Below are positions 21,849-63,000 of a stretch of DNA of 64,000 bases, in pieces (position 1 is the stretch's first letter; each line of letters opens with the position of its first letter). The notes below the pieces were generated by a model that saw only the letters and a list, made by a program, of their open reading frames with translations, was not told the DNA's origin and made no database searches. The translations under genes and the position numbers were made by a program. Source of the DNA: Azolla caroliniana (Eukaryota > Plantae > Polypodiophyta); contig JBHGNT010000011.1 of assembly GCA_043228905.1 (NCBI GenBank), forward strand, positions 19,964,001 to 20,028,000, read 5' to 3'.

Positions 21849-24587
21849 GGCAATAGGAAGCCATCCCCAACAATCTGGAGCTTCTGTCGCGTCTCGTCGG
21901 TGAACCGGTGCCCTATGCCTCGTGGGTCCCGCAAGCTAGGATCAACCGCTACCCCCTTTATCCAATCCCAACTATCGTTAGGCAATGGGGCAGCCACAGG
22001 CTTCACCTTCTTGTCCACGGTCTTGTACTTTGTTTGCACCTTGATCGTCCTTGCTTCCTCAATCAACCGCCCAAGCTCTTCGATGGCGGTGTACATGTCA
22101 ACTGAGTTGATTGGAATTACCTTGTTTTCATTGAGGCTCGAAACGACACTACCCTCTCCATCTCTCTGAGAGTGTCGTCGAATGAGACCGCCTCCATGGC
22201 GCCGCTTATGGTGTCATCTTCCCCCAATAAATTACATTGTTTGAGATACCTTTCGTATCTCTTGGCCCTAGACTTATCTCTATCACTTAAACTAGTAATT
22301 TTACAAGCTCCATTTTTGGAGAACGAAAATTGTTTCGTATTACATTTAATAGTTTTACAAGGGTTTAGGGTCTTAGTTTGCCTCGGGATATTGTGGCCCC
22401 ACTCTTTAATAGCCCGAATAAAAAATCCTCTTGGCTATCCTCTTGGCTATCCCCTTTGAGGGAGGCTCGATTGCGCTCATGGTTGGGCCTCACTATAAGG
22501 AATTGGACCGAATGCTTCCCATCTTGGCTCTTGACCCTCGCATATGCCGACCCGTTGTCCAGCACCTTCGTCTCCATGCGAGCCGCCGTGATGTATGGTT
22601 CACCCAAGATGACTGGGTGCGAGGACGTCTCTTGAACAAAGAAATGTTGATCTATTTCTACGTCCCCCACCTTCACACGTACATTCGGGCAAGCCCTGTA
22701 TAGCTCCTCGGTTGCTCAGGTCGCCGCTCTAATCTTCCACCCGTGCTTCATGTTGATCGACCACTTTCCCTTTTTATAAAAGTCCATGGACAAAAGGTTG
22801 ATCTCAGAGCCATGGTCGATCAATGCTACCACCGGCTCTTTTACATCTCCGACCCGTACCGGTGTCTCCGTTGTCGCTCTCACCCAATGCGGCCTCGTGT
22901 AGTGACTGTCCGCATAGTCTTTGTCTTCCTTGGGGACCTCAGTTGACAATGCATTTACAATCGCGGGTTTTGCCACTTCTTGCTCCGTTGAGAGCCGCTT
23001 CCTCTTCATTAGGTCAATGATGACCTCGTGGAATTCTTTCTTGGCAATTCCGAGGACCTCTCGCAGAGTAAACTCTACGCGACTATTGAGGATCCTCTCC
23101 TCCACTACCTTCTTCAAGTCCGTTGCTTGTTCGATCTCCGAGCAAAGCTTGAAGTTGGGGGGTTCCCCTTCTCTTTCCATCTTTCGTCGCGTGCTTGAGA
23201 TTGGTTCGGCTCTTCCCTTCTTCGTGCACCTCGAGCGTCGTATTTCCTTGATGGACCGGCTCCCTCGTCATTTCCTACCTTCTTCTCTTCTACCATTACT
23301 TCGTAGTTTTGGCAAGCGGGTTCCACTAAGCCTGTCTTTTCTTCCACCGGATCCATCCACCCGGTTGCTTCTTGAACCCTTCTTTCTGCTTCGTCCGCTT
23401 CTTCTCTTTTGAACTTCCCCTTAGAGAGGCTTCCAAGGATTGTCGGCTAAAAGTCAAACTCTTTCTCCTCTTGCCTCCTCACCTCTTTCCCCACTCGGAT
23501 CCCCGCTGACGCCGAGTAGTGGACGGCTTCAACATGTCGTGCTTCGGCCTCCTCCATTAGCCTTCTCATGCCCCCTCGGCCTTGATTCAATCCCAAGGGA
23601 TGCCTTGTCTCCGTCGAATAGACCCTATTGTTCCAAAGATAGACAATATCCTTTCTTAGGGCCTCTTGAAAGTCTCCACACTCCCTTCATAGGTGGTCGG
23701 GGTTGTCGCACCACATACATCTTTGCGCGAACGGGGGACGCCGATCTTGAGGGCCGCCACTCTCTCTCCTAGCTTGCGCTATTTGGAGATCTCGCACCAT
23801 CTTTGTGAGCTCGTCTATTGCCGACCCTCCCAACGGTGCTTCAACCACGTTTCTCTCGGGGATGAACCTTGCATTTACTTGCTCTCTTTCTTGAGGTATT
23901 CTACCACCCCTGGGTTCGTGTGTCTCACTAATGGAGCCTGTGGATGTTTGGCCGCTCAACGGAGACATGTCATTCCATTCCCTTCTCTTATCGAAGCGGC
24001 TACAAACCCGTTTTACCCTAGCCCAATCCGTCGTGAGCCCATCATCAGTTTCGAGGAGGGACCCCACCTTCTCTCGGTCTCGTGCATCAACAATCTTTAT
24101 GAATAGTAGGACCTTGCTTGTGTCAAGCACCATCCTATCGAGCGTCGAGCGTCAAGAGTTGTGCGAAGCGCTTCTCAAATTCTTGTAAAAGTACCATAGT
24201 ATTTCTCACCTTGCCGGGAAGCTCAACCCACTCCATTGGATCCCTTTTCGAAATTCTGAGTGAGTCATCAAGGCCGTACTTCTCAAGGAGTCTTTCTTTG
24301 AACTCCACCCAATTGCAACAGTCCGCTTGGATCTCGAGTACCTCCGTGTGGATACTCGGCGTTACCACTCTAGCGAATCCGGTTAGCTGCCTATCTTCGG
24401 GGACGTTTGGCATAAGCATTTCGGCCTTATAGGCATCCAAGTAGCTCGTGATATCTCTTCCATTGAACCGACCCATTGTGCTGACCACCGTCTCTATGGC
24501 CTGGTCTAGGCCGGTGATGCCTTCTCGGGCATTTACCAAGCGGTCCACCACCGCCGCCATCGCTTCAGCGAGTTCTCCTCCTCGCAT
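21849..24587 (-). pseudogene. G1 degenerate gag-PR and start of pol
   Basis: ORF pieces homologous to G3: CMWCDNPDHL knuckle, LIDHGSEIN protease, TKYKTVDKKVKPVAAPLP. Several stops and frameshifts. Confidence 0.88.
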
Positions 24588-31510: not shown

Positions 31511-31522
31511 TGGTATCAGAGC
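31511..31522 (+). promoter_or_regulatory. C1 primer-binding site for initiator tRNA-Met
   Basis: TGGTATCAGAGC, 3 nt after the 5'LTR. Confidence 0.92.
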
Positions 31523-31536
31523 GACTGTTGCAGAAA

Positions 31537-35610: not shown

Positions 35611-36226
35611 AGGGGGAGTTTGTTGGGATTGCGGTCCCTTCGGATGGGATGGTCGGATGTCGGAGATGAATGCCGACAAGCCCGGTTTCGGTTTCGGAAC
35701 CGGATGATGAAGACCCCGACTTCGGAGCCGGATGACGAATGTACCCGGAGAGCGATCCGAATACAGGGACATATCCGTGAATATGTCTGCTATGGGCCCC
35801 TGAGGCTATAGTTGTAAATAGCCCCAAAGTCATATATGTATAAATATGACTTAGGGCAAACAGTTTTACTGTTGCTACCCATTTTTCTGTTTTTCCACTC
35901 AAGAGGAGTGAAGAGGGAGCAGCCGTGAGAGAGAGAGAGAGATAGAGCGCGAGAGAGGAAGAGGTAGACGCCTCTGTGTATTTCCGCCGCCTGTGGCGAG
36001 GACAGCGAGCTCTAGGTCGTTGCCTTGCAGCTCGCCATTGTATATTTCTCTGTGCATAGTTTGGTTTGGAGTCTCACACTCCCGTGGTTTTTCCCGTATA
36101 GGGTTTTCCACGTTAATCCCTGTGTATCGTGTCTTTCTCTGTATTTCCTATTTTCTGCTGCATTGATCCGTGATTACTCGGTTGTGGCCGAGGGAAGAAG
36201 GTGAATCGAAGCGTTGATTCCCAACA

Positions 36227-40588: not shown

Positions 40589-42579
40589 CTACCTGCCATC
40601 GCGGCGTTCTTGCCGTTTGCCGGCTCGTGCTCCCTCTTGCCGATTGCTAATTGTGGTGTCCGGTTTTGTGTCGGCCTTTACTTGTTCAAATGGGTTCCTT
40701 GGCATGGGTCCATTGTATGGTTTGAGTTGGAACCCATTGACCCATTTACCCATAACCTCGGCGGTGAGTGTCCCTAACTGGTACAAACCGTTGAACTCAC
40801 TTGTAATCCAGTATGGTTCGGTCCACTGAAACTGTAGCTTCCCCGGCATCTTACCCATCCGGGTTTGGAATACTAGTACCGGCTTACCGATTCCGAACAT
40901 CTTTTCGTTCCCTTTTCGGTGACGATCCACGAACGCTTTCCTTCGTCGCTGCTCTAGTTCTAGGTGCATGATGCTGGCTAGCCGGTGTTCTTCCAATTTG
41001 CACAGCACGGCTAACCGGATAGCTTCCGATTCCTTCTCATTTAGGGGTTCCCGAATCTGTATTCGTAAACTCGGTACCTGGAACTCGACCGACATCACTG
41101 TTTCCAATCCGAATGCTAGGCGAAACGATGTTATGCGAATACTTGTCTTATATGCCGTTCGGTAGGCTGAGAGTGCACTGTGTAGCTTTGTATCCCAATC
41201 CGTCCGGTTCTCATTGATGATTTTTCGAAGGATGTTCTGTAGTGTTTTATTTGTTGACTCGGCTATTCCGTTGGCTTGCGGATAATAGGGAGTGCTCCGT
41301 TTGTGCACCACTGCATAAAATGTCGTCAAACTTTCCACTACTTGCCCTAAGAAGTGCCCACCTTGGTCACTTATTAGCTCTATCGAACATCCATACCGGC
41401 ACCAGATGTATTCATATAAATTTTTTTTCGTGGATGCCGCGGTGTTGTCGCGTAGTGCTTTGGCTTCCACCCATTTTGTGCAATAATCCGTAGCTACAAT
41501 TACGTACTGGTTGCCGGTTCTCATTGCTGGTGGTTTGAATGGACCGACAAAATCCAGCCCCCATTTCTGAAATGGTTCTAACGGTAGCACGGGCTGGTGA
41601 GGCATCCTGGCTTGTTCGGTTGGTTGGCCCATTCGCTGACATAGGTCACATTCTTTAGCATACCAAACTGCATCTTTCAATGTTGTCGGCCACCATAGTC
41701 CACTCTACCATATTTTCCTTGCCGTAGCGTCTCTGGCATAATGTCCTCCAACCACTCCGTAGTGTGCTCGAAAATATTATTTCCTTTTCGTCGTTGCGCA
41801 CTGCACGCCGCCATATGCCATCTGCGCCTTTGTGGTACAATGTGTCCTGTAATAGACAGAAGTGCCGGCTTTGAACCGCTAAGCGTTTCCTTTCGTCTAT
41901 GTTCATCTCCTCCGGGGGTAAACCAGTGTTCAGAAATTGGTGCATGTTGGTGAGCCACTTGTCTTCCTCTGCGACCGTACCATCCGTTGCCGTTTCTAAT
42001 GTAACTCTAAACAGCTCTACATCCGGAAAGTTGTCTGGGATGCCGTCACCGGTTTCGCCGGAATCTAACCGGCTCAAATAGTCTGCTACCGCATGTTGTA
42101 TGCCGGGTCAGTGGAAAATCTCGAACTCAAATTCTTGTAATAGTAATGTCCACCGGGCCAGCTTACCAGTGAGTGATGCTTTGGACACCAAGTAGAGGAG
42201 CGCTGAATGATCTACGTGAAAGGAAAATTTCCTTCCCAACAGATAGTGCCTAAACTTGGTGACACTGTAGATCATACCCAAGGCCTCCCTTTCCATTGTG
42301 GAATAATTACGTTCTGCTTGGGACAACTCCCGGCTGGCATAATACACTAGTCGGTACCATTTCGGTTCTTTAAGTTGCATAAGCGCGCTCCCGATTGCGA
42401 TGTCAGACGTGTCAATGAACACATGGAACTCTTTAGACCAATTCGGAGGTTGCACCACCGACGCTTGTGACCACAATACTTTTAGTGCTCGGTAAGCTTG
42501 GTCTTCTGTGTCCGTCCATTGGAACGGTGTCCGATGTACCGCGGCATGCAATGGTGTAGCCAGGTCTGCCAGATACCGG
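40589..42579 (-). pseudogene. A1 pol: RT C-terminus, RNase H and integrase
   Basis: FHVFIDTSDIAIG, NYSTMEREAL, VDHSAL, CDLCQR, WGLDFVGP, LISDQG, YPQANGIAE motifs. Confidence 0.92.
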
Positions 42580-43449
42580 TGTCGAGATATTACGCAAGTG
42601 CGTGTGGAATAGAGGCGGGACCGCGGGGGTCTCGAACCAAAGAGCAAGCGAGGGAGGAGAAAGAGAGAGAACCGGCTACGCAGGACCGGGGATACACAGG
42701 GACACGGCCCTTCAGCACGGAGAACGCGAACAGACACCGACACAGACGGATGCGAATGACTAAATATGTGTATTAACAAAATGGCTAACACGACTACAAC
42801 CCCCGATGGGGCACAGGTTGGTTGCAACCGAACAGGCCGGCGAACAGATGCCGATGCCTGTTCGCTTCGACGCACAAACGGGGAAATGGGGGGGGGTAGC
42901 AGGTCGGAGGTGCTGCCGGAAGCACTCGGGCGTTCCTCGAAACAGCGCGAGCCTCCCCGGAACCCTGCACAGAAAGCTTTGGAGCTCAAGAAGGAAGGAA
43001 ACAGAGAGAGCGAAGCGTCCAGAAACGGTCCGACAGCACTTCGTCCTCTCCGCGCCAGATCCCTGCAACAGCTCTTTCCCGCTCCTTATATAGGCCGACG
43101 AACAGGCCGTCGTGTCAGCTTTATTCCTTGTCCCTTTTGGACAGGGATCCGCTCCGTTTTTCACGGATCCGCGTAGTTACGCCGCCGACTCGTACAGTTC
43201 GCGCGCGCGACCGAAAAGACTGTTCGCGCGGTCTTTGTCTCCACTTGAGTTAGGGCCCGTTCCTGCCGATTATCCTCTCAATTCGTTTCTATGTACAACT
43301 CGGAGCGTGCGCGCGTGAAGAACCGGTTCCCACGCCTTGGTGCGCCGATTCCGCCTATGGACGGTTTTCTTCACGACATCCGCCCCCACCTAACCGCGCA
43401 TCCTCCGGTATGCGCCAAGAGAGTTGGGACGGAGAAAACCGGCCCGTCT

Positions 43450-46400
43450 TCACTCCTCGCCCGTCGGTTCTTCTTCATTTTTGGATCGTTCGTCACTGCC
43501 GACCAGGAGAGCCGGGTCTGGCTCGTCGTCGTGTCGCTTCTTGAACGCTTTGATCCGCTTCCCTGCAACCGGTATCGCCATTCTCGTGCCGTCAAGTTCC
43601 GCCAGGTGATATGTCCCGTTGTCATTGGCGCTCCGTACCACGTAAGGCCCGAACCACCTTCGTGCGAACTTCCGTGTGGCTCGGTGCTGGTTGTCGAGGC
43701 TGCTGTCGTAGACGAGCACCCAGTCACCTTCTTCGATTTTCTTCGGTCGTAGCCGGTGCGTTCGGTCGAACCGGGCTTTGTTCTTTGTCCTCGCCACCCG
43801 GAGCTTCTCCGTAGCCAGTGCCACGTCCTCCGGCCTCCGCTCGAGCTGTCGTATACGTGCGACCAACAACTCCTCCCGGCTCATCTCGTCCCTCCAGTCG
43901 ACCGTTGCCCACGAGGAGATCGTCCGTTCAATCGGCATGATCGGCGTCTGGCCGAACATGAGCTCCGTCGGCATGTACCCGGTTACCGAACTGTGCGTGG
44001 TCCGGTCTGCCCACAAAGCATAAGGTAGCAGCCGCGGCCAGTCACCGGCTCGGCCTCCGCATGCCCGAACCAACGCCTTGACGATCGGTCCGTGTCCGCG
44101 CTCCACCTTTCCATTCGCCTCCGGATTGTACGCAGTGGTGAGCGAGAGCTGGACTCCCAGCCGGTCGAACAGCTCCGCGGCTTCTTCGGCGTCCAACTCC
44201 CCTCGGTCAGCCACGATCTTCCCGACGCACCCGTACCGGCATATCACGTCCTCGATTAGGAACCGGCATACGGCCGCGGTCGTTTTGTTTGGAAGGGCCC
44301 GGCCTTCCACTTGGTTCGTCAGATCCTCCCGCGCTAGGACCAGGTACCGCATCTGTCCTACCCCCATTGGCATCGTCACCAGATCTACCATCCATTTGAA
44401 GTGGATGGTCGGAGGGTACGTGGGGTGAAGCTCGTCCCGATGTCGGACTATGGAGTGCATCTGACAGCTCCCGCAAGTTGTCACGAACCGATGCACGTCC
44501 CGGTACTGCCCCGGCCACCAATACTTCCCCTTTAGTTTCTCAAACGTAGCCCATGTTCCACGGTGTCCAGCCCAAGGGCTGTCGTGGTAGGCCGTCAGCA
44601 GTTCCTCCTGTTCTTCCTTCATCGCCACCACTCGGAGCGGGACGCCGTCCCTCTTCTTCGGGTGCTTCCATAGATGCCCATCTCGGAGAAAGAATCGATA
44701 TGCTTTCTTCCGGATCCGGTTGGCCTCGTCCTTCGTCCATGACGCATCGGGCGTCATCGTCTTCAAAAACCCGCCGATCTGCAGCCATTCCCCGTCGTAC
44801 TTGCTCGCGTCGAACTCGTTAAGCGCCGGAGTGCTCATCCCGTCGGTCGTTATGTATGCCGCCTCGAAGAAATCCACGCCGACTTCTTCGTCTTCCGAAA
44901 CCATGCCGCCCTCGTCGTCGAACCTCGCCCTCGAAAGCATGTCGGCCATGGCGTTGTCTTTCCCGGAAATGTGTCGTATTTCCGGGTCCAGGGACTTGAT
45001 GTACGCTATCCACCTGAGCATCGCCAGGTCCGGAGTCGCGCATCCGGAAACCATACCGAGAATCGGCAGGCAATCCGTCTCGATGATCACTTCCGTCCCT
45101 ATCAGGTAGTCTTTGTCGGCCTTAACCGCCGAAACAATACCCCAGAGTTCGCGTTTAACCTGGGCGTATCCTCGCTGCCGTTCACTGAGGACTTTCGCGC
45201 CGAATCGGATCGGAAACCGATTGCCGTCCTCGTCTTCCTGGTTCACGACCCATCCGATCCCGGTCGGACTGGTATCCACCGTTATGAATACCGGGGTACC
45301 CTTCCCGTAAACCGCCTTCCGGAGTGCCGGTGCCGCTGCAAGGGCCTCTTTCAGCTTCCGGACCGATTCCGCGTGCTTGTCTAGCCATTCGAACCTTCGC
45401 CCCTTTTTCAGCAACCCGTACAGTGGCTCCGCGACGTGTGCGTAATGCGGGATCCATATGTGGTAGAACGCGCATGCCCCCAGGAATCTCCGTACTTCCG
45501 TGACCGAGCTGCAGTCGGGCTTCATCGCGGAGATGGCTTCTACCTTCGCCGGAGACGGTTTCCGGCCATATGGTCCGCACAGGTGTCCGACCACCATGAT
45601 TTCTGACTGCCCGAAGGCCGACTTCTCCCCGGAGAAGGTGAGTCTCGCATCCTCTAGCCTTTGCAGCACCTTCTCGCAGTCGTCGACGTGCGTCGCCACG
45701 AATCGCCGGCATCCGTCCGGCCCGATCGTCTCGTCCTTTTCTTCCACCGGGCATCCCTTGATCGGGATGTCGTCCAGAAACGGCATGGTAATGTCCGGGA
45801 CACAGTCCCTCAGAACCTTGTTCATCGCATTCACCATGTGGGCCACCGAGTTGGTCCCTCCTTGCGGCAGTGTACACATCCGAACTAGGCCGAGGGGAGT
45901 TCGCATCGTCGTAAGGTCTCTGCTCTCCACGGCCAGCTGGAACTGGTCGTACCCTGAGTATAGATCCCCGACCGAGTAAATTGACCTTCCGGCGAAGGCC
46001 TCCGCGAACTCGTCTATGGTCGGTCCGATTCCTGCGTTCCGAATGGTCACTCGATTGACCGGCTGCAGGTCCTGGATGAAGCGCAGCGAACCGTTTTTCT
46101 TCGGTACGGTAAACCATCGATTCGAATATGGGGCGCTCGACGGCTCGAGAATTCCCATATCAACTTTCTGCCTCAGCAGCTCCATCAACTTCGGGATGTG
46201 AGCTCTCGGAACCGGGATTGGCTTGAGATTCCATGGTACATGCGGTACCGTGAATATCACCATCGGCTCCACGATCGTCGGGTCAACGCACCCGATTTCC
46301 TCCGGCGAGAATGCGAAGGCTTTCCCGTGCCTTCCGAGCATTCTCCGAAACCGGTCTTCCTCCGCCGGCAGTAGGAACCCGCCCCCACCGATTTTGAGCT

Positions 46401-46941
46401 CTCGGAGCGTCTCGTCAGTGAAGGTGTGCCCTATGCAGGCCGGATCTCGTAGACTAGGGTCTGATGCAACCCCTTTGATTCTCGACGCGCTGTCCTCCGG
46501 TAAGGGTGCCGCTACTGGCCTTACCTTCCGGTCCACAGTCTTGTACTTGGTGTTTACGTGGGCCGTCCGAACTGACTCGAGCCCTCGACCGAAGTCCGCG
46601 ATGACTTCGTACATCTCCTCGGAACACACCGGTATCGTCCGGTCGTCGTTAAGGCCTTCTTCGACTACCTTTCCCAGCATTCCCAAGGTGTCGTCGAATG
46701 AGACCGCCTCCACGGCTCCGTTGATTTCCTCGTCCGGGCCGAGAACTCCGCACGCTCGAAGTCTCGCCTCCGTCTTTGTTTTCTCTCGGCCGGCGATGCC
46801 GACCATCGCACACGCTCCGTTGTCGGAGAACAAAAATTCCCTACCTATGGTACAAGGTTTCTTCGGTTTTATCGTACAGGTGTGGGGTTTTCCCGGGGTG
46901 TCCGGACTGTCGCGGCCCCACGCCTTGGCAGCCCTCTCTAA
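43450..46941 (-). CDS. G3 pol ORF (RT-RNase H-integrase), probably reached by -1 frameshift from gag-PR
   Basis: Open from just after TAA 46956-46954 to the stop at 43450. DLYSGY, LPQG, PFLDDI, TVDTS, ETDC, H-H-C-C, VADRG and GPY motifs; no chromodomain. Confidence 0.93.
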   Translation of the reverse strand, partial: LERAAKAWGRDSPDTPGKPHTCTIKPKKPCTIGREFLFSDNGACAMVGIAGREKTKTEARLRACGVLGPDEEINGAVEAVSFDDTLGMLGKVVEEGLNDDRTIPVCSEEMYEVIADFGRGLESVRTAHVNTKYKTVDRKVRPVAAPLPEDSASRIKGVASDPSLRDPACIGHTFTDETLRELKIGGGGFLLPAEEDRFRRMLGRHGKAFAFSPEEIGCVDPTIVEPMVIFTVPHVPWNLKPIPVPRAHIPKLMELLRQKVDMGILEPSSAPYSNRWFTVPKKNGSLRFIQDLQPVNRVTIRNAGIGPTIDEFAEAFAGRSIYSVGDLYSGYDQFQLAVESRDLTTMRTPLGLVRMCTLPQGGTNSVAHMVNAMNKVLRDCVPDITMPFLDDIPIKGCPVEEKDETIGPDGCRRFVATHVDDCEKVLQRLEDARLTFSGEKSAFGQSEIMVVGHLCGPYGRKPSPAKVEAISAMKPDCSSVTEVRRFLGACAFYHIWIPHYAHVAEPLYGLLKKGRRFEWLDKHAESVRKLKEALAAAPALRKAVYGKGTPVFITVDTSPTGIGWVVNQEDEDGNRFPIRFGAKVLSERQRGYAQVKRELWGIVSAVKADKDYLIGTEVIIETDCLPILGMVSGCATPDLAMLRWIAYIKSLDPEIRHISGKDNAMADMLSRARFDDEGGMVSEDEEVGVDFFEAAYITTDGMSTPALNEFDASKYDGEWLQIGGFLKTMTPDASWTKDEANRIRKKAYRFFLRDGHLWKHPKKRDGVPLRVVAMKEEQEELLTAYHDSPWAGHRGTWATFEKLKGKYWWPGQYRDVHRFVTTCGSCQMHSIVRHRDELHPTYPPTIHFKWMVDLVTMPMGVGQMRYLVLAREDLTNQVEGRALPNKTTAAVCRFLIEDVICRYGCVGKIVADRGELDAEEAAELFDRLGVQLSLTTAYNPEANGKVERGHGPIVKALVRACGGRAGDWPRLLPYALWADRTTHSSVTGYMPTELMFGQTPIMPIERTISSWATVDWRDEMSREELLVARIRQLERRPEDVALATEKLRVARTKNKARFDRTHRLRPKKIEEGDWVLVYDSSLDNQHRATRKFARRWFGPYVVRSANDNGTYHLAELDGTRMAIPVAGKRIKAFKKRHDDEPDPALLVGSDERSKNEEEPTGEE

Positions 46942-46947
46942 AAATCC
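46882..46947 (-). promoter_or_regulatory. Putative -1 programmed ribosomal frameshift signal (G_GAU_UUU, 6-nt spacer, stem/pseudoknot)
   Basis: Heptamer 46947-46941, stem GGGCUG/CAGUCC, loop GUGGGG complementary to CCCCAC at 46887-46882. Same architecture in G1 and G5. Confidence 0.8.
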
Positions 46948-49064
46948 TCTCGGTTATCGGAACCGAGGGAGTCGCGGTTACGCTCGTGGTTCGGCCTAAC
47001 CGTAAAAAACTGGACCGAATGGCGGCCGTCCTGGCTCTTGACCCGCGCATAGGCCGAACCATTGTCCAGCACCTTGGTCTCCATTCGCGCCGCCGTGATG
47101 TACGGCTCTCCCAGTATGACCGGATGCGAAGACGTCTCCTGCACGAAGAAGTGCTGGTCAATCTCGACGTCGCCGATCTTGACTCGCACATTCGGACAGG
47201 CCCCGTGCAGTTCCTCGGTGGCGCGCGTTGCTGCCCTTATTTTCCACCCGTGCTTGGTGTTGATCGGCCATTTGCCCTTCTTATAGAAGTCCATGGACAT
47301 CAAATTGATCTCCGATCCGTGGTCCACCAAAGCTATCACCGGTTCCTGGACATCGCCGATCTTCACCGGGGTTTCCGTGGTCGCTCGGGCCCAGTGCGGT
47401 CTCGAATAGTGGCTTTCCGCCCACTCGTCTCCCAGCGCCATGTCGTCTAGGTGCGTCGTCCGCACTTCCACCGGTCTTTCCGGTTCTGTCTCCGTTGACA
47501 GCCTCTTCCGTTTCACCAAGTCCACGATGGAGTCGTGGAACTCCTTCTTGGCGATTCCAAGCACCTCCCGTAGCGACAGCTCCACCTTGCTGTCGAGGAT
47601 CCGTTCCTCCAGGACCTTTCGTAAGTCCGTGGTTCTTTCTATCTCCGTCCCCAGACGGTACCCGCCCTTCTGGGGTTTATCTTGCGTACCGGCCCTGCCG
47701 GCTTCGTCCCGTCGTGGCCCGGACCGGGTCTCGTATCGTTGTGAGGGCCCGGTCGTCCCGGGTTTTCCCACCCGCTTCTCTTCTACCAGAGCCTCGTAGT
47801 TCCGGCAAGCGGCTTCCACGAAGCCCGTCCTTTCCTCGACCGGGTCGCTCCACCCGGTCATCTCCCGTACCCGTTTCTCCGCACGGTCCGATTCCTCCCT
47901 TTTAAGCCCTGCACCGGCAAGGCCTTCCAGCATCGTCGGCCAGAATCCGGCTTTGCTTTCCTTTCGGGCCTCGCCGCCCCCGACTCGAATGCCGGCCGAC
48001 GCCGAGTAGTGGACGGTTTCCGCGTGTCGGGCCGCCGCCTCTTCCATCAACCTTTTCATACCACCCTTTCCGTCGTTTCGGCTCAGGGCCCTTCGGGTGT
48101 CGCTGGCATGCACCCGTCCTTCCCACAGGTACACCACCCGGTCCCTCAGCGCCTCCGCGAAGTCGCCGCAGTCCTTCCGAACGTGGCCGACTTCATCGCA
48201 CCACATGCACCTGTTTCCTGCCGCCGGCCGTCGGTCACGAGCCGGTTCGCCTCCTTCCCTTCGGGCCTGCGCGATTTGGAGGTCCTTTATCGCCTTCGTC
48301 AATTCCTCCAGCGCCGCTCCTCCGGTTGAGCCTCTGACTACGCCGGTCGAAGCCGAACCGGTTTCCAACCACTCCCGGGTCTCTTCCTTGCGCACCTGTG
48401 GCGCTGGTTCGAGCTTCCTTGCTGCGACCGAGCCCGACCCAGTCGCCCCGTTATCCGCCCATTCTCGCCGTTTGTCGAAACGGCCACAGACCTTCCTGAC
48501 AGCCGCCCAGTCGGTAGTGAGCCCGTCTTCGGTTTCCAGCAAGAGGCCCACTTGCTCCCGATCCCGCTCGTCGACCGACTTGACAAACAGCAAGACCCGG
48601 CTCGTGTCCAGGATGGTTCGGTCGAGCGCCGAAAGGCGCGCAAAGTTTTCCTCGAACTCCCGGAGGAGTGCCGACGCGTTTCTTCCCTTCCCCGGGGACT
48701 CCACCCATTCCATGAACCTTCGCTTCGAAAGCCGGAGCGCGTCGTCCAGCCCGTATTTCTCTAGGAGCCGACCTTCGAACTCCTCCCAGGTACGGCTCTC
48801 CGCCCGCACCTCGAGCACCTCCGCATGGATGCTCGGCATTGCCACTCGGGGAAAACCGGCAAGACGCCTTTCTTCCGGAATGTCCCGCATCAACATTTCT
48901 GCACCGTAGGACGCCAGATACTTCGTGGCATCCCTCCCATCGAACCGGCCGATCGTGCCGACGACCGCCTCAATAGCTCTGTCGAGGGCACCGGTACCCT
49001 CGCGCGCGTTTACGATCCGATCCACGGCCGAAGCCATGGCCTCTGCGAGATCCGACCCCCTCAT
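46938..49064 (-). CDS. G3 Gag-protease ORF
   Basis: First ATG ~23 nt after the PBS, CMWCDEVGHVRKDC knuckle, LVDHGSEIN...ILGEPY aspartic protease, ends REDF*. Confidence 0.93.
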   Translation of the reverse strand: MRGSDLAEAMASAVDRIVNAREGTGALDRAIEAVVGTIGRFDGRDATKYLASYGAEMLMRDIPEERRLAGFPRVAMPSIHAEVLEVRAESRTWEEFEGRLLEKYGLDDALRLSKRRFMEWVESPGKGRNASALLREFEENFARLSALDRTILDTSRVLLFVKSVDERDREQVGLLLETEDGLTTDWAAVRKVCGRFDKRREWADNGATGSGSVAARKLEPAPQVRKEETREWLETGSASTGVVRGSTGGAALEELTKAIKDLQIAQARREGGEPARDRRPAAGNRCMWCDEVGHVRKDCGDFAEALRDRVVYLWEGRVHASDTRRALSRNDGKGGMKRLMEEAAARHAETVHYSASAGIRVGGGEARKESKAGFWPTMLEGLAGAGLKREESDRAEKRVREMTGWSDPVEERTGFVEAACRNYEALVEEKRVGKPGTTGPSQRYETRSGPRRDEAGRAGTQDKPQKGGYRLGTEIERTTDLRKVLEERILDSKVELSLREVLGIAKKEFHDSIVDLVKRKRLSTETEPERPVEVRTTHLDDMALGDEWAESHYSRPHWARATTETPVKIGDVQEPVIALVDHGSEINLMSMDFYKKGKWPINTKHGWKIRAATRATEELHGACPNVRVKIGDVEIDQHFFVQETSSHPVILGEPYITAARMETKVLDNGSAYARVKSQDGRHSVQFFTVRPNHERNRDSLGSDNREDF

Positions 49065-49086
49065 CTTCTGCTCTTCTGCCGCCTCT

Positions 49087-49104
49087 TTCACGTCGGGTTC
49101 ACCA
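49087..49104 (-). promoter_or_regulatory. G3 primer-binding site complementary to tRNA-Trp(CCA) 3' end
   Basis: TGGTGAACCCGACGTGAA matches the plant tRNA-Trp 3' end TTCACGTCGGGTTCA-CCA (recalled sequence). Same PBS at 24611-24627, 53954-53971 and 63047-63064. Confidence 0.85.
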
Positions 49105-49907
49105 AAGATGTCGAGATATTACGCAAGTGCGTGTGGAATAGAGGCGGGACCGCGGGGGTCTCGAACCAAAGAGCAAGCGAGGGAGGAGAAAGAGAGAGAA
49201 CCGGCTACGCAGGACCGGGGATACACAGGGACACGGCCCTTCAGCACGGAGAACGCGAACAGACACCGACACAGACGGATGCGAATGACTAAATATGTGT
49301 ATTAACAAAATGGCTAACACGACTACAACCCCCGATGGGGCACAGGTTGGTTGCAACCGAACAGGCCGGCGAACAGATGCCGATGCCTGTTCGCTTCGAC
49401 GCACAAACGGGGAAATGGGGGGGGGTAGCAGGTCGGAGGTGCTGCCGGAAGCACTCGGGCGTTCCTCGAAACAGCGCGAGCCTCCCCGGAACCCTGCACA
49501 GAAAGCTTTGGAGCTCAAGAAGGAAGGAAACAGAGAGAGCGAAGCGTCCAGAAACGGTCCGACAGCACTTCGTCCTCTCCGCGCCAGATCCCTGCAACAG
49601 CTCTTTCCCGCTCCTTATATAGGCCGACGAACAGGCCGTCGTGTCAGCTTTATTCCCTGTCCCTTTTGGACAAGGATCCGCTCCGTTTTTCACGGATCCG
49701 CGTAGTTACGCCGCCGACTCGTACAGTTCGCGCGCGCGACCGAAAAGACTGTTCGCGCGGTCTTTGTCTCCACTTGAGTTAGGGCCCGTTCCTGCCGATT
49801 ATCCTCTCAATTCGTTTCTATGTACAACTCGGAGCGTGCGCGCGTGAAGAACCGGTTCCCACGCCTTGGTGCGCCGATTCCGCCTATGGACGGTTTTCTT
49901 CACGACA

Positions 49908-51315
49908 CCGGAGCATTCGGCTATGCCACCGAATTTGTCCTAAGAACCGGTTTAGTGCCTTTGCCGTGGTTGGTGCCGGTGCCTCCAAAATAGCTTTGAC
50001 CTTGTCCGGATCTACTGCAATACCGTCCTTGCTCACGATGTGGCCAAGTAATGCTCCGCTGGCCACTTTGAACACGCATTTTGCCGGGTTTAGGCTTAGT
50101 CGGTAAACCCTACATTTCTCCAAACATAGTCGGAGGTGCTAAAGGTGATCCCCTTTCCAGCTATAAACATCGAAGTCGTCCAAGAACACCTGCATGAATG
50201 CCGGAATGAATTCTCCGAAAATCTCCATGATGATCCGCTAGAAGGTTGTCGGCGCCGTTTTCAGTCCGAACATCATCACTACGGCAACAAAGACTCCCCA
50301 TTCGGTGACAAAAGCGGTTTTCTCCTGGTCGGCGGGGTGCATCCGGATCTGATTATAGCCGCTGAAACCGTCCAGAAAACTGTACACCTCATGACCGGCG
50401 ACCGCATCCAGGACTCCATCCGTGAATGGAAGTGGGAAGGCGTCTGTTACCGTAGCCGCATTCAATTTCCGGTAGTCGACGCACACTCTTATATTACCGT
50501 TCTTTTTCGGTACTACAACTATCGGACTGAGCCATGTGGCTTTCTTTACCAGTCGGATGAAGCCAACCCTTAGCAACTTGTCGATTTCTTCTTTGACTTT
50601 TGCTGAGTAATTCGGGTTCATCCGGTAACATCATTGCGCTACCGGTTTAGCGTCTTTACTCAGATGTATCTAGTGTTGATACAACTGAGGATTGAGTCCC
50701 CGCATGTCCTCGTAGGACCGGGCGAACACATCGCGAAATTCTTTTAGGAGTGTGATGATTGCCGTTTTGTTCTCCGGGGTCATTTCCTTGGCGATGTGCA
50801 CCGGTCTTGTGTCCTCTGTGGTACCTAGGTTTACCTCTTCTAGTTGGGATGCTTTTACGCGCTGCGACACCGCCATGTCTCTTTCCAGTGCCTCCTGTGC
50901 TTGTCGTAACTCCCGGATCGCTTCTTTATCCGGTTCCTCGTCGGTCCCGTCCGGTTGCAGTATGTACGATGATATTGCTTCGGCTACATCAATTTCGAAT
51001 AGAGGTACGATTTTCCGATTTTCTTGTAAGTATTGATCGACCTCTTCGTTTGCCAATCCTTCCAGCATGTTGACACATTCCGCATATAGCGGCGTCAATT
51101 CCTTGCCGGTACCGGACCGTGGTTGAGTCGATACTCACACTTTTGCTTTTCCAAACTGGAACGTAATTATATTCTTCCTTTAGTTTTGCTCGATGTGTGT
51201 TGTTTTTAACCAAGGGCGTCCCAACAATAGTGGGTAAGCTCCTTGAGCCTGTAGCTGGAGGACTACTGCCGAAATGCGAAATATGTGACCCTCGATGGTC
51301 ACTTTCAGATCGCGT
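49908..51315 (-). pseudogene. A1 pol: protease C-half and RT
   Basis: WLSPIVVVPKK, CVDYRKLN, FLDGFSGYNQI, MFGLKTAP, VFLDDF motifs with stops. Confidence 0.92.
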
Positions 51316-52064: not shown

Positions 52065-52874
52065 TCACTCGTCGTTCTCCGATTCTCCGCCGAACCCGAA
52101 CTGATCGTCGTTGTTACTCTTGCTCGCCGGCTCCGGCTCGTCTTCGAACCGCTTCTTGAACTCTTTGATCCACTTCTCGGCCACCGGCACAGCTAACCGT
52201 GTACCATCGAGTGCCGCGAGGTGGTACGTGCCGTTGTTGTTCGCACTCGTCACCATGTAGGGCCCGAACCACCTCCTAGCGAACTTTCGCACCGCCTTGT
52301 GCTGATTGTCGAGGCTGCTATCGTACACCAAGACCCAATCGCCTTCCTCGATCTTCTTTGGTCGCAACCGGTGCGTCTGGTTGAACCGGGTCTTGTTCTG
52401 CTCCCTTGCGGCCCGCAGCCTTTCCTTCGCCCGTTTCATGTCCTCCGGCCTCCGCTCGAGTTGCCGAATCCGCGCCGCCAGCAACTCCTCCCGGCTCATT
52501 TCGTCCTTCCAATCTACCGCCACCCATGAAGAAACCGTCCGTTCCACCGGCATGATCGGCTTATGTCCGTACATCAACTCTGCCGGCATAAACCCTGTTA
52601 CCGAACTGTGCGTAGTTCGGTCCGCCCATAGTGCGTAAGGGAGGAGCCGCGGCCAATTCCCGACCTGCCCTCCGCATGCACGCACCAACGCCTTTACGAT
52701 CGGCCCGTGCCCACGTTCTACCTTCCCGTTCGCCTCCGGATTGTACACCGTAGTGAGGGAGAGTTTAATGCCTAGCCGGTCGAACAACTCCTCAGCTTCC
52801 CGCGCATCCAGCTCTTCCCGGTCTGCCACGATCCTCCCGACGCACCCGTACCGACACACTACCTCTTCGATCAA
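52065..52874 (-). pseudogene. G4 truncated integrase (core second half plus GPY/F)
   Basis: CRYGCVGRIVADRE, YNPEANGKVERGH, RRWFGPY; homologous to the G3 integrase. Confidence 0.88.
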
Positions 52875-53324
52875 GAACCCTAGGTCTCACCCGGTTCGTT
52901 ACCCTAGGTCTCACGCGGGCACTCGGCCCGGCCGCCGGGGTCTCTTGAACCGGTGCGTGTAAGGTAGCAATGCCGCCGCTCGTCGATGCTATGCCCGTAG
53001 CCACCTCCATTCGGACATCGTCGTCCGTGGCTACCCCGCCTCCGTATATGCAAGCATCAATTATGCTTGCCGCCTCCTCTTCCACGGTCTCCATACCGTT
53101 GTCTCGGTTGCCCGCCTTGCCGCCGCCACCGCCCGTCGCTCTAGGTCTCACGCCGGCAATCGGGCCGACCGCCGGTGCCTCTAGGGCCGGTGTGTGTAAG
53201 GTCGCGGCATCGCCGCTTGTCTCCTCCTCACTCGATGTTTCGGGCCTCCATGCCTGAACTCCCTCATGTCACCGTCCCCGACCTCGTCCTCGGTCGATCT
53301 TTCTCCGTATGTCGAGAGGGTGGC

Positions 53325-53931
53325 TCACTCCGCACCCTCTCCCGTGGTACCGATGTACCATTCTCTCTCGGCCTCCTCATCCTCCGATCCGCTCGGGCCC
53401 GACTCCGCAATAAGCCCTTCTTTGGCTTCGATTTGTGCCTCTACGATCTCGTACGCTTCCCGCACCAAGGCTTCGATGTCGAGCTCCTCCGAACCTATTT
53501 GCGTTGAGCTCTCTTCCGACGGTAGTGCATAGTCGGTCACCGCTCTCTCTTCTACGCCGCTCGCGGGCCACCTTGTGGCCGACCGCCTCTCATCGCATTG
53601 TATGCACGCCCATTCCACCTCGTTCCAATCTTTAGTGAGGCCGTACGCCCCTTCATCGTCTTCGAGGTAGGGAAAAATGGCCATTCTCCCCCTTTCGTTG
53701 ACCGACTTCAAGAATAGTGGGACCTTGTCCGCCCCCATCGATTCTTGATCCCGGACTGAAAGTTGGGAAAACCGGAGATCGAACTCCCGGAATGCCTTCA
53801 TTGCGCTTCGAGGAGCCTTTGCCGACGACACCCATAGATCGAACTCACGTCGATCGTACTTGTATGCCTCTTCCTGTCGCGTAATCCCTTGCCATTCTCG
53901 TAATTACTTCTGCGATGTCTCCGTCTTCCAT
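53325..53931 (-). pseudogene. G4 shortened, frameshifted gag
   Basis: REFDLWVSS...FREFDLRFSQLS...LFLKSVNER aligns by eye to G3 gag. Confidence 0.7.
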
Positions 53932-57751: not shown

Positions 57752-60324
57752 TCAATAAGATTCCTCCTCGTCTTGTCTTTTCTTGAAAACCTTTACTCTT
57801 TTTCCCGCAATGGGTATGGCCAACCTTGATCCATCTAGTTCCGCAAGGTGGTATGTGGCATTGTCGTTGGCAGTTATCACCACATACGGTCCGAACCATC
57901 TTCTTGTGAACTTTCTTGTTGTACTGTGTTGATTGTCAAGGCTACTGTCGTAGACCAATACCCAATCTCCTTCTTCGATCCTCTTAGGACGTAGTTGATG
58001 CGTCTTGTCGAACCGAATTTTGTTCTTCACTTGGGCTGCCTCCATCATTTTTCGCGCATGTTCTAGATCTTCAGGTCTCCTTCAAGTTGCCTTATCCGTG
58101 CCGCTAATAATTCTTCTCAGCTCATCTCATTATCCCATGGTATCGCTACCGAAGAGGCGATCGTCCTTTCGATGGGCATCACCGGCTTTTGTCCATACAT
58201 AAGCTCCGTTGGCATATACCTTGTCACCGAGCTATGTGTCGTTCTGTCAGCCCACAAGGCATAGGGCAATAGTCGTGGCCAATTCCCGACTCGACCGTTG
58301 CATGCTTGTACGATGGCTTTGACGATGGGTTCATGCCCTCGCTGGATCTTCCCATTTGCTTCTGGATTGTAGGCAGTCGTGAGGGAGAGCTTCATGCCTA
58401 GTCGTTCGAAAAGCTCAGTTGTTTCATGTGCGTCCAACTCCCCTCAGTCAGTGACTATCTTCCCCACACATCCGTATCGGTAGACAATCTCTTCAAGTAG
58501 AAATTTGCAAACAGCTGACATCGTCTTATTTGTCAAGGCCCGCCCTTCCACTTGATTTGTCAAGTCTTCTCTTGCCAGCACTAAGTACTTCATTTGTCCC
58601 ACTCCCATTGGCATCAAGACCAGATCAACCATCCATTTGAAGTGTATGGTGAGCGGGTATGTCGGTCGTAGCTCATCACGATGATGTATGTTGGAATGTA
58701 CTTGGCAAGTTTCGCATGTGGACACGAAATGGAGTACATCTTTGTACATGCTTGGCCACCAATACTTTTCCTTCAACTTTTTGAACGTCGCCCATGTTCC
58801 TCTATGACTTGCCCAAGCACTCTCGTGGAATTCGGTCATCAGCGTCACTTGCACTTCTTTCTTCACCACCACTCGGCATGGTATTCCCATCCTTCTTTTA
58901 GGGTGTCGCCAAAGGAAGCCTCCCTTCAAGAAGTATCGATAAGCTTTCTTCTGGATTCGTAGAGCCTCCTCCTTTGTCAACGAATGCGGATTTCTGGTTG
59001 CCCGAATGCGGATTTTTATCCCGAAAATGTTAAATTCGCATCTTCGAGCCTTTGAAGCGCCCTCTCGCAATCTTTCATATGATTCGCGACGAACTTTCTA
59101 CACCCTTATCTTTTGATTCATCTTTCTCCTCATCCGAACATCCTTTTATCAGAATATCAATTAAGAATGGTATCGTGATGTCCGGGATACAATCCGTCAA
59201 GACTTTGTTCATGGCATTCACCATATGAGCCATCGAGTTCATTGCGCCTTGAGGTAAGGTACACATCCGCACAAGCCCGATCAGAGTCCTCATGGTTGTA
59301 ATGTCACAACTGTTGATCGCCAATTGGAATTGGTCATATCCGGAGTAGAGATCGCCAATGGAGTAGATGGATCGGCCCGCAAACGCCTCGGCAAATTCGT
59401 CCACGCTCGGACCGATTCCGGCATTTTGAATTGTCACCTTGTTGACGTGTTGAAGATCTTGGATGAATCGCAATGATCCATTCTTCTTCGGCACCGTGAA
59501 CCACCTATTGGAATAAGGAGCATTCGATGGTTCCAAAATTCCCATATTCACCTTCTCCTTTAAGAGCTTGATCAGCTTCGATAGGTGTGCTCTCGGAACC
59601 GGTATCGGTTTCAAATTCCAAGGTACATGCGGCATCGTGAAGATCACCATCGGCTCTATCGCCCTTGGATCAGCACATCCGATTTCTTGTGGAAAAAAAG
59701 CGAAAGCCTTCCCATGTCTCTCAAGCATGTCGCGAAACTTTTGCTCCTCTTCAAGGAGAAGGAAATCCTCCCTTCTAACTCGTAGCTTTCCCTTCATCTC
59801 TTTGGTGAAGACATGACCTATTGTCTTCGGATCTCTTAAGCTTGGATCGTTAGCGACTACCTTCATCTTTTGCCAGCTATCTTCCGGTAGCGGAACCGCA
59901 ACTGGCTTGACCTTCTTTTCCACTGTTTTATATTTTGTGTTGACGTCAGTTTCCTTCATCAAGATGCTTCGATGATATTCATCGATGATAATGTACATGT
60001 TGATGGAGCTAACCGAAATCACGTGATGATCGTGAAGATAGCTCAAGTCCACGACGTCCTTGATTTCGCCGATGGTGTCGTTAAATGAGGCTTCTTCCAT
60101 AATATGAGTCACGAACTCTTCTTCTTCTATTATGTTTTCTTCTTTCAGCATCTTCTCGAAGTTTTGTATCCGATGCTTGTCCTTCTTGTCGGGTAGTACT
60201 AGTTTACATGCGCCACTAGGTGTGACACATGTTGCTTCTCCTCGCAATCCACGTGCTCTACTTTCTTGTGGGGACTTGCGATTGCTCGGACTATTTGTGC
60301 CCCATGCTTCAATAGTCTGCTCTA
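57752..60324 (-). pseudogene. G5 pol (RT plus integrase; RT thumb and RNase H deleted)
   Basis: YSNRWFTVPKKNGSLRFIQDL, LPQG, then a jump from SAFGQPEI to LTKEEALRIQKK, HRGTWATF, GPY. Confidence 0.88.
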
Positions 60325-63000
60325 AAAATCCGGGGATTCGCCTCCAAGACTATCTCGATTTCTTTCATGATTAGCTCGCACCATTAGGAATTGGAGCGAT
60401 CTTTGGTTGTCAAGACTCTTTATTCGTGCGAAGGCTGCTCCATTATCGAACACTTTGGTCTCCATCCGAGATGATGTGATATACGGTTGTCCTAGGATGA
60501 TAGGATGTGACGTCGATTCTTGCACGAAGAAGTGTTGATCCATCTCCACATCCCCGATCGTGATTTTAACATCGGGACAAGCTCCGTACAAGTCCTACGT
60601 AGTCTTTGTTGTCGCACGAATCTTCCATCCGTGATTTGTATTGATTGGTCATCTTCCTTTTTTGTAGAAGTCGGTTGACATGAGGTTGATCTCCGAGCCG
60701 TGGTTGATCAAGGCTACCACGGTCTCTTTCTTCTCCCCGATCTTCACTGGCGTCTCCGTTGTCGCTCGTGCCCAATGAGGTCAAGTATAGTGGTTGTCCA
60801 CCATATCTTCATCGACTTCGTCTCTTGCCATCGTTATGACATTCGTTTTTGCTTTTTGCGGCTTCTCTTCTTCCTCATCCGATTGTTGTCTTTTCCTCTT
60901 TACAAGGTCCACGATCATGTCATGGAACTCCTTCTTTGTAATGCCAAGCAATTCCCTCAAGGACAAAGTCACGTGGCTATCAAGAACACGTTCTTCGAGA
61001 ATCTTCTTTAGGTCCGTCGTCTGCTCTATGTCTGACCTTAGCTTATAGGTAGGCATAGCCCTTGTCCTCCGAGCGGGGTCTTCAACACCAATCTTCACGG
61101 GCCGAACCGTTTCTTCGACTCGTTTGCTCGACTCTGCTTTTTGGCTTGCATCTCCTTCCTCCATTTGCAAGGGTCGACTCGTCTCTGCATCTTCTTTCTT
61201 TTTTGTGTTCCTTGTTTCATGTCTTTTTGATGGGCCTTGCTCTTCTATTCTTTTGCTCTTTTCTTCGACGAACACCTCGTGGCTGTCGCACATCACTTCC
61301 GCGAGTATAGTGTTGTCATCTACCAGATCCGACCACCCGGTTATCCTTTGCACACTTCGGTCCGCAAGCTCCACCTCATTCGATGTGACCTTCCCCATCT
61401 TCTCATACTCGAGAATGGAAGACCAAAACTTTGCTCCTACTTTCGCAGCTTCATTGTTGTCTTTCCCGATCTTATTCCAGCCGTTGCAGCATAGTGCATC
61501 GCATCCACATGAGTCGCCTCAGCATCTTCCATAGATTTCTTCATTCACCCTCTTCCAAAATTCACCCGTAGGGGTCTTCGAGTTTCAGTCGAGCAGATCA
61601 TGTTGTCCTCTATGTATACGATATTTTGTCGAATCGCCTCTCAAAGGCTCGCGCAATCCCTTCTCATGTGGTCCATGCTATCGCACCACACTCAACTAAA
61701 GGGTTCTTTTCTTTTGGGGCCCCGACGATTGATGTTGGCTAGCGTGACCTTCTCGAACTTCTTCGCTAGCTCTTCGATGATGTCGTCATCAATCTTCTTT
61801 TCTTCTGGGCTGCTTTGTTTGGGCGGCTCAGCTACTTTCGGTTGTCTTGTTTTCTCCACAACAGTCGATCCCGCCAAGTCGGTGTCATCAACCCACTGAC
61901 GACGCTTGTCGAGCCTATTGCATGCTCGCTTTACCGCAACCTAGTCCGCCATAAGCCCATTTGCTTGGGTATCGTCTTCGAGAAGAGTCCCCAATTCTCG
62001 TCTATCCTTCATGTTCACAGCTTTCAAGAAGTACAAAGTCTTGTCTTCTTCAAGCAACACTTGGTCCGTGTTGGGGAGACGACTAAACATCTGGTCGAAT
62101 TTGTCGTACACCCTCGAGGCGCTCATCTTCTTATTCTTCTTTGACGTGAAATACATGGATTAATCTCCGGCCACAACCGAAGCGTAGATCACTTGATGAC
62201 AATCAAAACATAGACGAAATAGGAATGGAGGTTTCAGGCTATTTACAAATATAGCCCTAGTGGGCTCTCTGGAACATATTTACATATAGGTCCCTTCCAT
62301 CCGATGAGAGGTTCTCATCAAGCCTACAACATCTGGTTCTCACCGGGTCTTCCTTGCCAGGTACTCGTCATCCGGTTCTCACCTGGTCTTCCGTTGCCGG
62401 GTACTCCACATCCGGTTCTCACCGGGTCTTCCGTTGCTGGGTACTCGTCATCCGATTCTCACCGGGTCTTCCTTGTCGGGTACTCGTCATCCGGTTCTCA
62501 TCGAGTCTTCCATTGTTGGGTACTCCACATCCGGTTCTCACCGGGTCTTCCGTTGTCGGGTTTGCTCATCAACATTGTTCTTCTCACTTCCCATCCGGAG
62601 GGACCTGTTTCCTAACATTCTTTTCTATCAACTTCATCAAGGCATGTCAAGTCATCCTCGTTGAGTCTTCAGTCCCGAACTCCGCTAATATCGCTTTCTC
62701 AAACTCGAACCATGTTATCTTTCCTTCTTGAAGCTCGATGACGCGTCTTTGGATGTTGTTGGCGACCACCCTCTTGAAACTCGTGATTTCCCGTGCTTCA
62801 GACACGTCTCTTTGATTCATCTCCCTTTTGTATGCGTTAAGGAACTTCGTAATGTTCCTTCCATCAAATTGACCCTCGAGCTCTACGACACGGTCGACGG
62901 CCTTCTCCACACTCGCATCGTTGTCTCAAGATCTCATAATTTGTTCGACGATTATCATCATCCTTTCGAACTCTCCCACTTGGTTGCTTGAGGATGCCAT
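60322..63000 (-). pseudogene. G5 gag-PR, degenerate and interrupted by S2
   Basis: FDGRNITKFL, LSLRELLGI, HFFVQE..HPIILGQPY, ends ESPDF*. Confidence 0.85.
62142..62617. mobile_element. S2: 476-bp solo LTR of an unrelated family, with an internal ~40-bp tandem array
   Basis: TG...CA ends and 5-bp TSD TTCTT; host gag restores to IEKKNKKM. About 6 copies of CATCCGGTTCTCACCGGGTCTTCC...GGTACTC at ~62330-62560. Confidence 0.85.

Follow-up and report, generated by a model that had tools for sequence, protein, structure and literature searches.

We wondered how a young retrotransposon of the fern Azolla caroliniana might obtain its reverse transcriptase (RT) when its first open reading frame (ORF1) runs into a stop codon and the polymerase gene follows in another frame. 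The element, G3, lies on the minus strand of the 64,000 nt that were analyzed (the window: contig JBHGNT010000011.1, positions 19,964,001-20,028,000; the cassette coordinates below are positions within it). It is a young Phygy-type Ty3/gypsy retrotransposon with long terminal repeats (LTRs), as its target duplication, primer site and domain content indicate. ORF1 ends GAG GAT TTT TAG, and pol, which encodes RT, RNase H (RH) and integrase (IN), lies in the -1 frame. We propose that pol is expressed by programmed -1 frameshifting at the heptamer G_GAU_UUU, together with a two-stem 3' structure, between protease (PR) and RT, and put the probability of this reading at about 0.88. The frames, the site, the stop right behind it, covarying stems at a fixed distance of 6 nt and selection acting on the linker as read in the frame of pol are seen directly. 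A sequence-only reading of the window had already noted this ORF1 end and placed the upstream TAA at 46956-46954, with the -1 frame open from there through pol, and all of this holds; the heptamer is at 46947-46941 and the stop at 46940-46938, and the -1 frame is open for 1167 codons. The junction cassettes consist of the following features.

46954..46956, minus strand: TAA closing the -1 frame upstream, leaving 13 nt for the shift in G3
46941..46947, minus strand: putative slippery heptamer G_GAU_UUU, containing the Asp and Phe codons of ORF1, read from the sequence
46938..46940, minus strand: ORF1 stop TAG directly behind the heptamer (TAA or TGA in kin)
46927..46934, minus strand: 5' strand of stem 1, starting 6 nt past the heptamer
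46916..46921, minus strand: 5' strand of stem 2, GUGGGG, in the loop of stem 1
46912..46915, minus strand: interstem segment of 4 nt between the 5' strand of stem 2 and the 3' strand of stem 1, deduced from the pairings
46904..46911, minus strand: 3' strand of stem 1, from the pairing analysis
46882..46887, minus strand: 3' strand of stem 2, CCCCAC, 16 nt past stem 1 (11-16 nt in kin)
22366..22428, minus strand: cassette of G1, an older, broken element, with one mismatch in stem 1 and a G-U pair in stem 2
60269..60331, minus strand: cassette of G5, an older, broken element

The same heptamer occurs in the same register in G1 (22428-22422) and G5 (60331-60325, both minus strand), as had been noticed from the sequence. 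The word GGATTTT alone is common: the window has it ten times on its minus strand and five times on its plus strand. It is its position at the protease end, in all three copies and their kin, that goes beyond chance. In the family, stem 1 comprises eight pairs, one of them a C-A mismatch in G3. The stems noted earlier are present and covary, and the length of six pairs first given to stem 1 was too short. The suspected pairing of the loop UGGGG with CCCCA(C) is stem 2, with double changes at five positions. The CCCUA of G1, originally put down to decay, turned out to be a family trait that is shared by 28 of the 30 best G1-like copies and yields a G-U pair. In the window, G1 has no stop immediately after the heptamer; of the 27 G1-like copies in which the heptamer is present, 8 share this and 19 have TGA. 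A G3 hairpin, UCCGG/CCGGG (46895-46909, minus strand), is a rival of stem 1 under nested folding and could tune the shift or be incidental. A related element at 52100-53900 (minus strand) lacks the protease-RT part and hence the junction.

The site is conserved throughout the family. In the 30 genomic copies that match each junction best (window copy included), the heptamer is in register in 30/30 G3-like, 28/30 G5-like and 25/30 G1-like copies. A protease-end pattern of which the heptamer is not a part gave 3661 genomic matches; in the first 30 of these, GGATTTT stood directly before the ORF1 stop in 24, one belonged to the -2 clade described below and five were damaged. At 80 metagenome loci, pol occupied the -1 frame and was open across the stop in 56 cases and occupied the +1/-2 frame and was open in 2, the remainder being broken (3), without an RT match (17) or cut off (2). 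Sixty-six of 120 homologous ORF1 proteins end in DF, among them named entries from Riccia and Physcomitrium (liverwort and moss), and 21 end in PL, many of which equal DF or GF plus five residues. Distant homologues ending in GF (P0080, P0092, P0109) or NF (P0094, P0107, P0122) may use other heptamers or frames. A search of viral contigs for relatives found none, and searches of the host's own genome for more distant lineages returned solely subfamilies already seen.

Comparative analysis was based on 218 usable loci, grouped into 32 clusters and reduced to 24 subfamily representatives that were chosen for an open pol frame (22 of -1 type and 2 of -2 type); eight clusters (L046, L078, L091, L102, L144, L234, L253 and L280) were dropped from the covariation set as decayed or near-duplicate. 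All 22 -1-type subfamilies carry a heptamer of the X_XXY_YYZ type, G_GAU_UUU/C, in the 0 frame inside the ORF overlap. The codon preceding GAU ends in G in 22/22, with nine different codons in use (background of third-position G 28%), the Asp codon is GAT in 22/22 (background 62%) and the Phe codon is TTT in 20/22 (background 40%), the other two having G_GAU_UUC. Because the ORF overlap amounts to just 10 nt in L140 and L192, there is no other place for the shift in these two. The stop is directly behind the heptamer in 20/22 and lies 15 nt downstream in L174 and L199.

Downstream of the site, the cassette is predicted to fold as a two-stem pseudoknot. When the 24 subfamilies were anchored on pol-frame codons, gapless and unfitted, 186 of 192 stem 1 cells paired, compared with 46-87 after sliding. 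In a MAFFT alignment of 23 sequences (the subfamily L198, part of the codon-anchored and stem 2 analyses, was left out) stem 1 was 97.3% paired, and 5 of its 8 pairs showed double changes. The loop strand of stem 2 forms 5.58 Watson-Crick pairs with its own downstream region versus 4.57 with swapped partners and 3.79 with background windows. Double-sided changes occur at five loop positions (27, 28, 29, 31 and 32), and matched variants are GAGGG/CCCUC, CAAGG/CCUUG, GGGAC/GUCCC and GCGAGA/UCUCGC. The 3' strand of stem 2 is found in all three codon phases, which would not be expected from a protein constraint and argues for one on the RNA. For the structure as a whole, the observed values were reached by 0 or 1 of 500 shuffles, which ignore relatedness. 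The covarying stem 1 at 6 nt falls inside the 5-9 nt range for a 3' RNA structure, and the predicted pseudoknot has a loop 1 of 5 nt, an interstem segment of 4 nt and a loop 3 of 11-16 nt. Rfam contained no match to the junction structure at expect values (E) up to 10. In L198 (2758-2841), a distant subfamily, both stems are kept with nearly all letters changed, and there is an alternative longer-range helix, AGAGUACC/GGUACUCU.

Two subfamilies, L168 (2497-2580) and L171 (2835-2918), have pol in the +1/-2 frame, where it is open for at least 983 and at least 981 codons, respectively. They are monophyletic on the RT tree (100/100) and nested among -1-type subfamilies, with L179 as their sister. 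Further loci with pol in this frame, the heptamer G_GUU_UUU and a 5-nt spacer are L098, L201-L260 and L311, and the +1/-2 frame was found in 28 of the 30 best genomic copies. The exact junction of this clade has 95 matches in the Azolla genome, and in one copy from the genome both frames are open, for 739 and 1181 codons; the frame is therefore no assembly slip. Between L168 and L171 the ratio of nonsynonymous to synonymous substitution (dN/dS) in pol is 0.07 over 852 codons, at a dS of ~1.3, which makes it likely that expression of pol continued after the frame change. The site reads CAG_GUU_UUU in both subfamilies, and both stems are retained with compensatory changes, stem 1 starting 5 nt past the heptamer as opposed to 6 nt. 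A -1 slip would here lead to a stop immediately (L171 family) or after five codons.

On balance, though with clear reserve, we favor the view that the sister clade represents a natural switch from -1 to -2 frameshifting in which G_GAU_UUU became G_GUU_UUU and the same pseudoknot moved one base closer. G_GUU_UUU is the -2/-1 site of PRRSV, the virus of porcine reproductive and respiratory syndrome, and the spacer is 1 nt shorter, as the mRNA-tension model predicts. At the PRRSV site, -2 re-pairing is perfect in the A site and limited in the P site (PMC6675879; papers are cited by PubMed Central number). As +1 and -2 are one and the same frame, an alternative is that a +1 shift, or splicing to CAG|G, gives access to pol in this clade. 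An acceptor-like CAG|GU is indeed present at the junction of both -2-clade subfamilies, but CAG also precedes the site in the -1-type L174, L179 and L183, and of these L179 groups as sister to the clade by RT. Elements with a +1 shift are known in yeast and were the sole split plant elements in a 2003 survey (PMC5009743), and RNA reads do not cover the -2 clade. However, re-pairing from UUU to UUG after a +1 shift (L171 family) would be poor, whereas a -2 slip would give the A-site tRNA a perfect UUU, and the stimulator fold persists through compensatory changes at a place exactly 1 nt closer. We regard a +1 shift or splicing in this clade as less likely.

The -2 reading of the sister clade finds a close parallel in arteriviruses. 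Like the arterivirus nsp2TF signal, the clade has G_GUU_UUU with the downstream ORF in the -2 frame, the same A- and P-site re-pairing pattern and, in the L171 family, an immediate -1 stop (PMC6675879, PMC7939443). Arteriviruses use no RNA structure and need nsp1beta and PCBP on a C-rich motif 10 nt downstream, whereas the sister clade has a covarying fold 5 nt downstream (PMC6675879, PMC7939443); inspection of the aligned -2-clade sequences by eye revealed no arterivirus-type C-rich motif CCCANCUCC 10 nt downstream. The site may work like the arterivirus site, but the clade is not a member of that class. On reporters with the human immunodeficiency virus (HIV) U6A site, Lin et al. 2012 found -2 frameshifting to be optimal at a spacer 1-2 nt shorter than that for -1 (PMC3458567). 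Those reporters were engineered, while the spacer change of the sister clade is natural and fixed in a transposing lineage.

For G3 and its -1-type kin, we envisage that the pseudoknot would make the ribosome pause while tRNA-Asp and tRNA-Phe occupy GAU_UUU. On UUU in the -1 frame, re-pairing of the tRNA in the A site would be perfect, giving the junction peptide EDF-LERAAK in G3, and the minority of ribosomes that slip back one base would make a Gag-PR-RT-RH-IN polyprotein. Most ribosomes would terminate at the adjacent codon and release Gag-PR, which would bring protease to the same abundance as Gag, a situation known from Rous sarcoma virus (RSV). In the sister clade the same fold would drive a -2 slip at G_GUU_UUU with its 5-nt spacer. 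We infer that the lineage produces abundant Gag-PR and rare Gag-PR-RT-IN. The same product would arise if the shift were a termination-coupled slip of a single tRNA, the P-site tRNA-Phe on U_UUU at the adjacent stop, and not a tandem slip. The stop directly after the heptamer in 20 of the 22 -1-type subfamilies speaks for such coupling, as does pea enation mosaic virus, whose shift at G_GAU_UUU needs a nearby stop (PMC5009743). Yet in L174 and L199 the stop is 15 nt downstream while site and fold are retained, and a slip in the P site only has no need for the invariant upstream G and GAU, which makes this variant improbable.

We likewise give little credence to the idea that the stems are alternative hairpins of a switch, and not one pseudoknot, or that RNA polymerase slips on the U run. 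Both stems covary, but nested ensembles form one or the other, and the winner differs among subfamilies; G3 has a third, competing hairpin besides. This mutual exclusion, however, is imposed by the nested model, and the geometry, with a loop 1 of 5 nt, an interstem segment of 4 nt and a loop 3 of 11-16 nt, agrees with pseudoknots that have an interstem element, such as that of Visna-Maedi virus (PMC5009743). As to polymerase slippage, the U run has no listed indel in the RNA reads, and in two subfamilies a C breaks the run (G_GAU_UUC).

Between the shift site and RT lies a linker of ~130 codons (120-155) with no Pfam match (46853-46550, minus strand, at the start of ORF2 in G3). Among representatives chosen for an open pol frame, it has no stops in the pol frame and 2-24 in each other frame. 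Upstream of a semi-conserved Met its dN/dS is 0.12-0.38 in 9 of 10 measurable pairs and 0.8 in one, a further pair being saturated; the linker is under moderate purifying selection in the pol frame, which speaks against internal initiation at the Met near ORF2 codon 110, a reading rejected on this ground. No splice joint or indel is listed at the junction in three poly(A) RNA-seq runs of related origin, which at their thin cover is weak evidence. It is thus highly improbable that pol derives from a spliced or subgenomic RNA or from internal initiation ~110 codons into ORF2, with site and fold serving packaging or dimerization: splicing often sets the Gag:Pol ratio in plants (EVADE, BARE1, Ogre; PMC12786077) and many subfamilies have a Met-Tyr-like motif near codon 110, but the position of the first Met varies between codons 6 and 111, purifying selection in the pol frame extends upstream of the semi-conserved Met, the low-depth RNA-seq has no splice joint over the junction, the absence of AG at the site in 14 of the 22 -1-type subfamilies led to rejection of a splice acceptor there for the -1 class, and the fixed G before GAU is left unexplained.

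Several points weigh against programmed frameshifting at the junction or against its -2 extension. The proposed -1 signal is predicted from sequence comparison. Permutation tests ignore relatedness, and the register of stem 2 was fitted per sequence, the unfitted MAFFT register being 78.3% paired. Folding was done with ViennaRNA, which is nested only and cannot represent pseudoknots; single-sequence folds were not significant (z -0.18, -0.82 and +1.12), for which reason the structure rests on covariation, and the nested minimum-energy fold of G3 retains stem 2 and swaps stem 1 for the rival hairpin. Of the 24 representatives, 23 are short-read metagenome contigs that come mostly from a single series of samples and could represent collapsed repeats. 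The G3 junction has few RNA-seq reads, most of them 90-99% alike, and the -2-clade copy received next to no cover, so the reads give no evidence either way there. A second, more decayed set of -2-clade copies keeps the +1/-2 register in 17/30. Finally, the -2 clade comprises two subfamilies of one origin, and the link between spacer and direction is a single event.

The heptamer of RSV is A_AAU_UUA. RSV and the avian sarcoma-leukosis viruses (ASLV) differ from the G3 family in being retroviruses with another heptamer and a larger double pseudoknot, and homology of the signals is not claimed. They share with it a protease in Gag, a site directly before the 0-frame stop and a pseudoknotted 3' stimulator (PMC12789967, PMC12002268); their protease is encoded as part of Gag in a Gag-PR | Pol layout (PMC12789967, PMC12002268), and the RSV shift amounts to ~5% (PMC5009743). 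A junction after the protease had been thought unusual, but the RSV/ASLV layout makes it less unusual than implied (PMC12789967). Ulysses and Osvaldo may also encode their protease within ORF1. That G_GAU_UUU serves umbraviruses and dianthoviruses as a slippery site, as had been stated, is confirmed by the literature (PMC5009743). Pea enation mosaic virus (RNA 2), an umbravirus, and the dianthoviruses have in common with G3 this heptamer, plant ribosomes and a stop close behind; they differ in using a stem-loop and a pairing kilobases away, whereas both stems of the G3 family lie within 60 nt (PMC5009743). A pseudoknot with an interstem element is known from Visna-Maedi virus (PMC5009743). Judged against these systems, the heptamer, the pseudoknot type and the protease-in-Gag position each appear to be precedented, and neither site nor position is new in kind. 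What is new is the monophyletic sister clade, in which pol lies in the +1/-2 frame, both stems are retained and the spacer measures 5 nt.

Within the accessible literature, with subscription papers outside its coverage and most hits judged from their listing, our search found no description of this signal in Phygy and none of a -2 shift in a retrotransposon. A 2016 review, referring to the 2003 survey, mentions two kinds of split plant elements, both +1, and as natural -2 cases phage Mu, arteriviruses and Trichomonas vaginalis virus 1 (PMC5009743), and a 2025 review names frameshifting in general and for plants details splicing only (PMC12786077). The available text of PMC5890265 and PMC7466625 holds nothing bearing on the signal, and the word 'frameshift' is absent from that of PMC7466625. 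The G3 family would be a plant LTR element with a virus-style -1 signal and a covarying compact pseudoknot, next to the +1-frame plant cases to which the review limits the survey. With the sister clade it makes up a naturally occurring pair of cassettes that share the fold, differ in the site and one spacer base and have the downstream gene in different frames, and -1 versus -2 direction is testable with these natural sequences on plant ribosomes. If true, the sister clade would provide a natural -2 programmed frameshift in a eukaryotic element that depends on RNA structure only, and a living test of the mRNA-tension model.

G3 itself, 7328 bp in total, has the following parts.

49109..49907, minus strand: 5' LTR, 799 bp, 99.75% identical to the 3' LTR
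49088..49104, minus strand: primer-binding site, complement of the 3' end of host tRNA-Trp
46938..49118, minus strand: ORF1, 726 codons stop to stop, Gag and a C-terminal aspartic protease (DHG motif)
43450..46953, minus strand: ORF2 in the -1 frame, 1167 codons, with a ~130-codon linker, RT, RNase H and integrase
42580..43378, minus strand: 3' LTR, with the target-site duplication CCGG at both flanks

The LTR pair, the target duplication and the domain order PR-RT-RH-IN are those of Ty3/gypsy elements. The Gag part of ORF1 contains DUF4100 and, read from the sequence, a Cys/His knuckle-like motif. A Pfam scan of both ORFs, which fill the inner region, revealed no chromodomain, aRH or extra ORF; it recognized no protease in ORF1, and a sequence search of the Protein Data Bank with the protease alignment gave no match. 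The last 134 residues of ORF1 were modelled with a mean predicted local distance difference test (pLDDT) of 71, and the best hit of a fold search with this model was the Ddi1 retroviral-like protease domain (E 6.7e-6, template-modelling (TM) score 0.61), followed by the proteases of equine infectious anaemia virus (EIAV), xenotropic murine leukaemia virus-related virus (XMRV) and HIV. By this model the C-terminus of ORF1 is a retropepsin-fold protease, which places the junction between protease and RT, where the sequence-only reading had put the -1 shift; the comparative evidence above backs the shift as well.

The named homologues nearest to G3 come from Physcomitrium, Riccia and Adiantum, the nearest named proteins being those of Physcomitrium. 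Marks of Phygy according to Neumann et al. 2019 are an NCGN target duplication and a tRNA-Trp primer site (PMC6317226). G3 resembles Phygy in its 4-bp NCGN duplication, its tRNA-Trp primer, its shortness and a coding sequence that fills the inner part, and differs in that its 7328 bp are slightly below the listed 7656-9968 bp (PMC6317226). The 4-bp NCGN duplication was present in 11/11 cases (G3 of the window and 10/10 further G3-like copies). The polyprotein organization of Phygy is given as 'ND' in the supplementary table of PMC6317226, and the available part of that paper gives no recoding signal for it; the proposed signal would fill this entry on enzyme expression for Phygy-type elements, which have at least 3661 protease-end matches here and relatives in moss, liverwort and fern. 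The complement of the primer site was found inside host tRNA-Trp(CCA) gene calls at 3/3 loci examined. Clusters of tRNA-Trp-like sequences occur at C8:17796786-17823371 (~1.2 kb apart) and C16:4989495-5105657. G3 sits inside the RT/RNase H region of a decayed gypsy element of another lineage (40600-42579 and 49908-51300, minus strand). Elsewhere in the window, a young Ty1/copia element at 30902-36226 (plus strand) has one open frame of 1374 codons and 606-bp LTRs that are 99.67% identical, and a 105-bp tandem repeat forms two arrays, at 20658-21391 (7 copies) and 27225-27876 (6.2 copies), which are ~90% alike.

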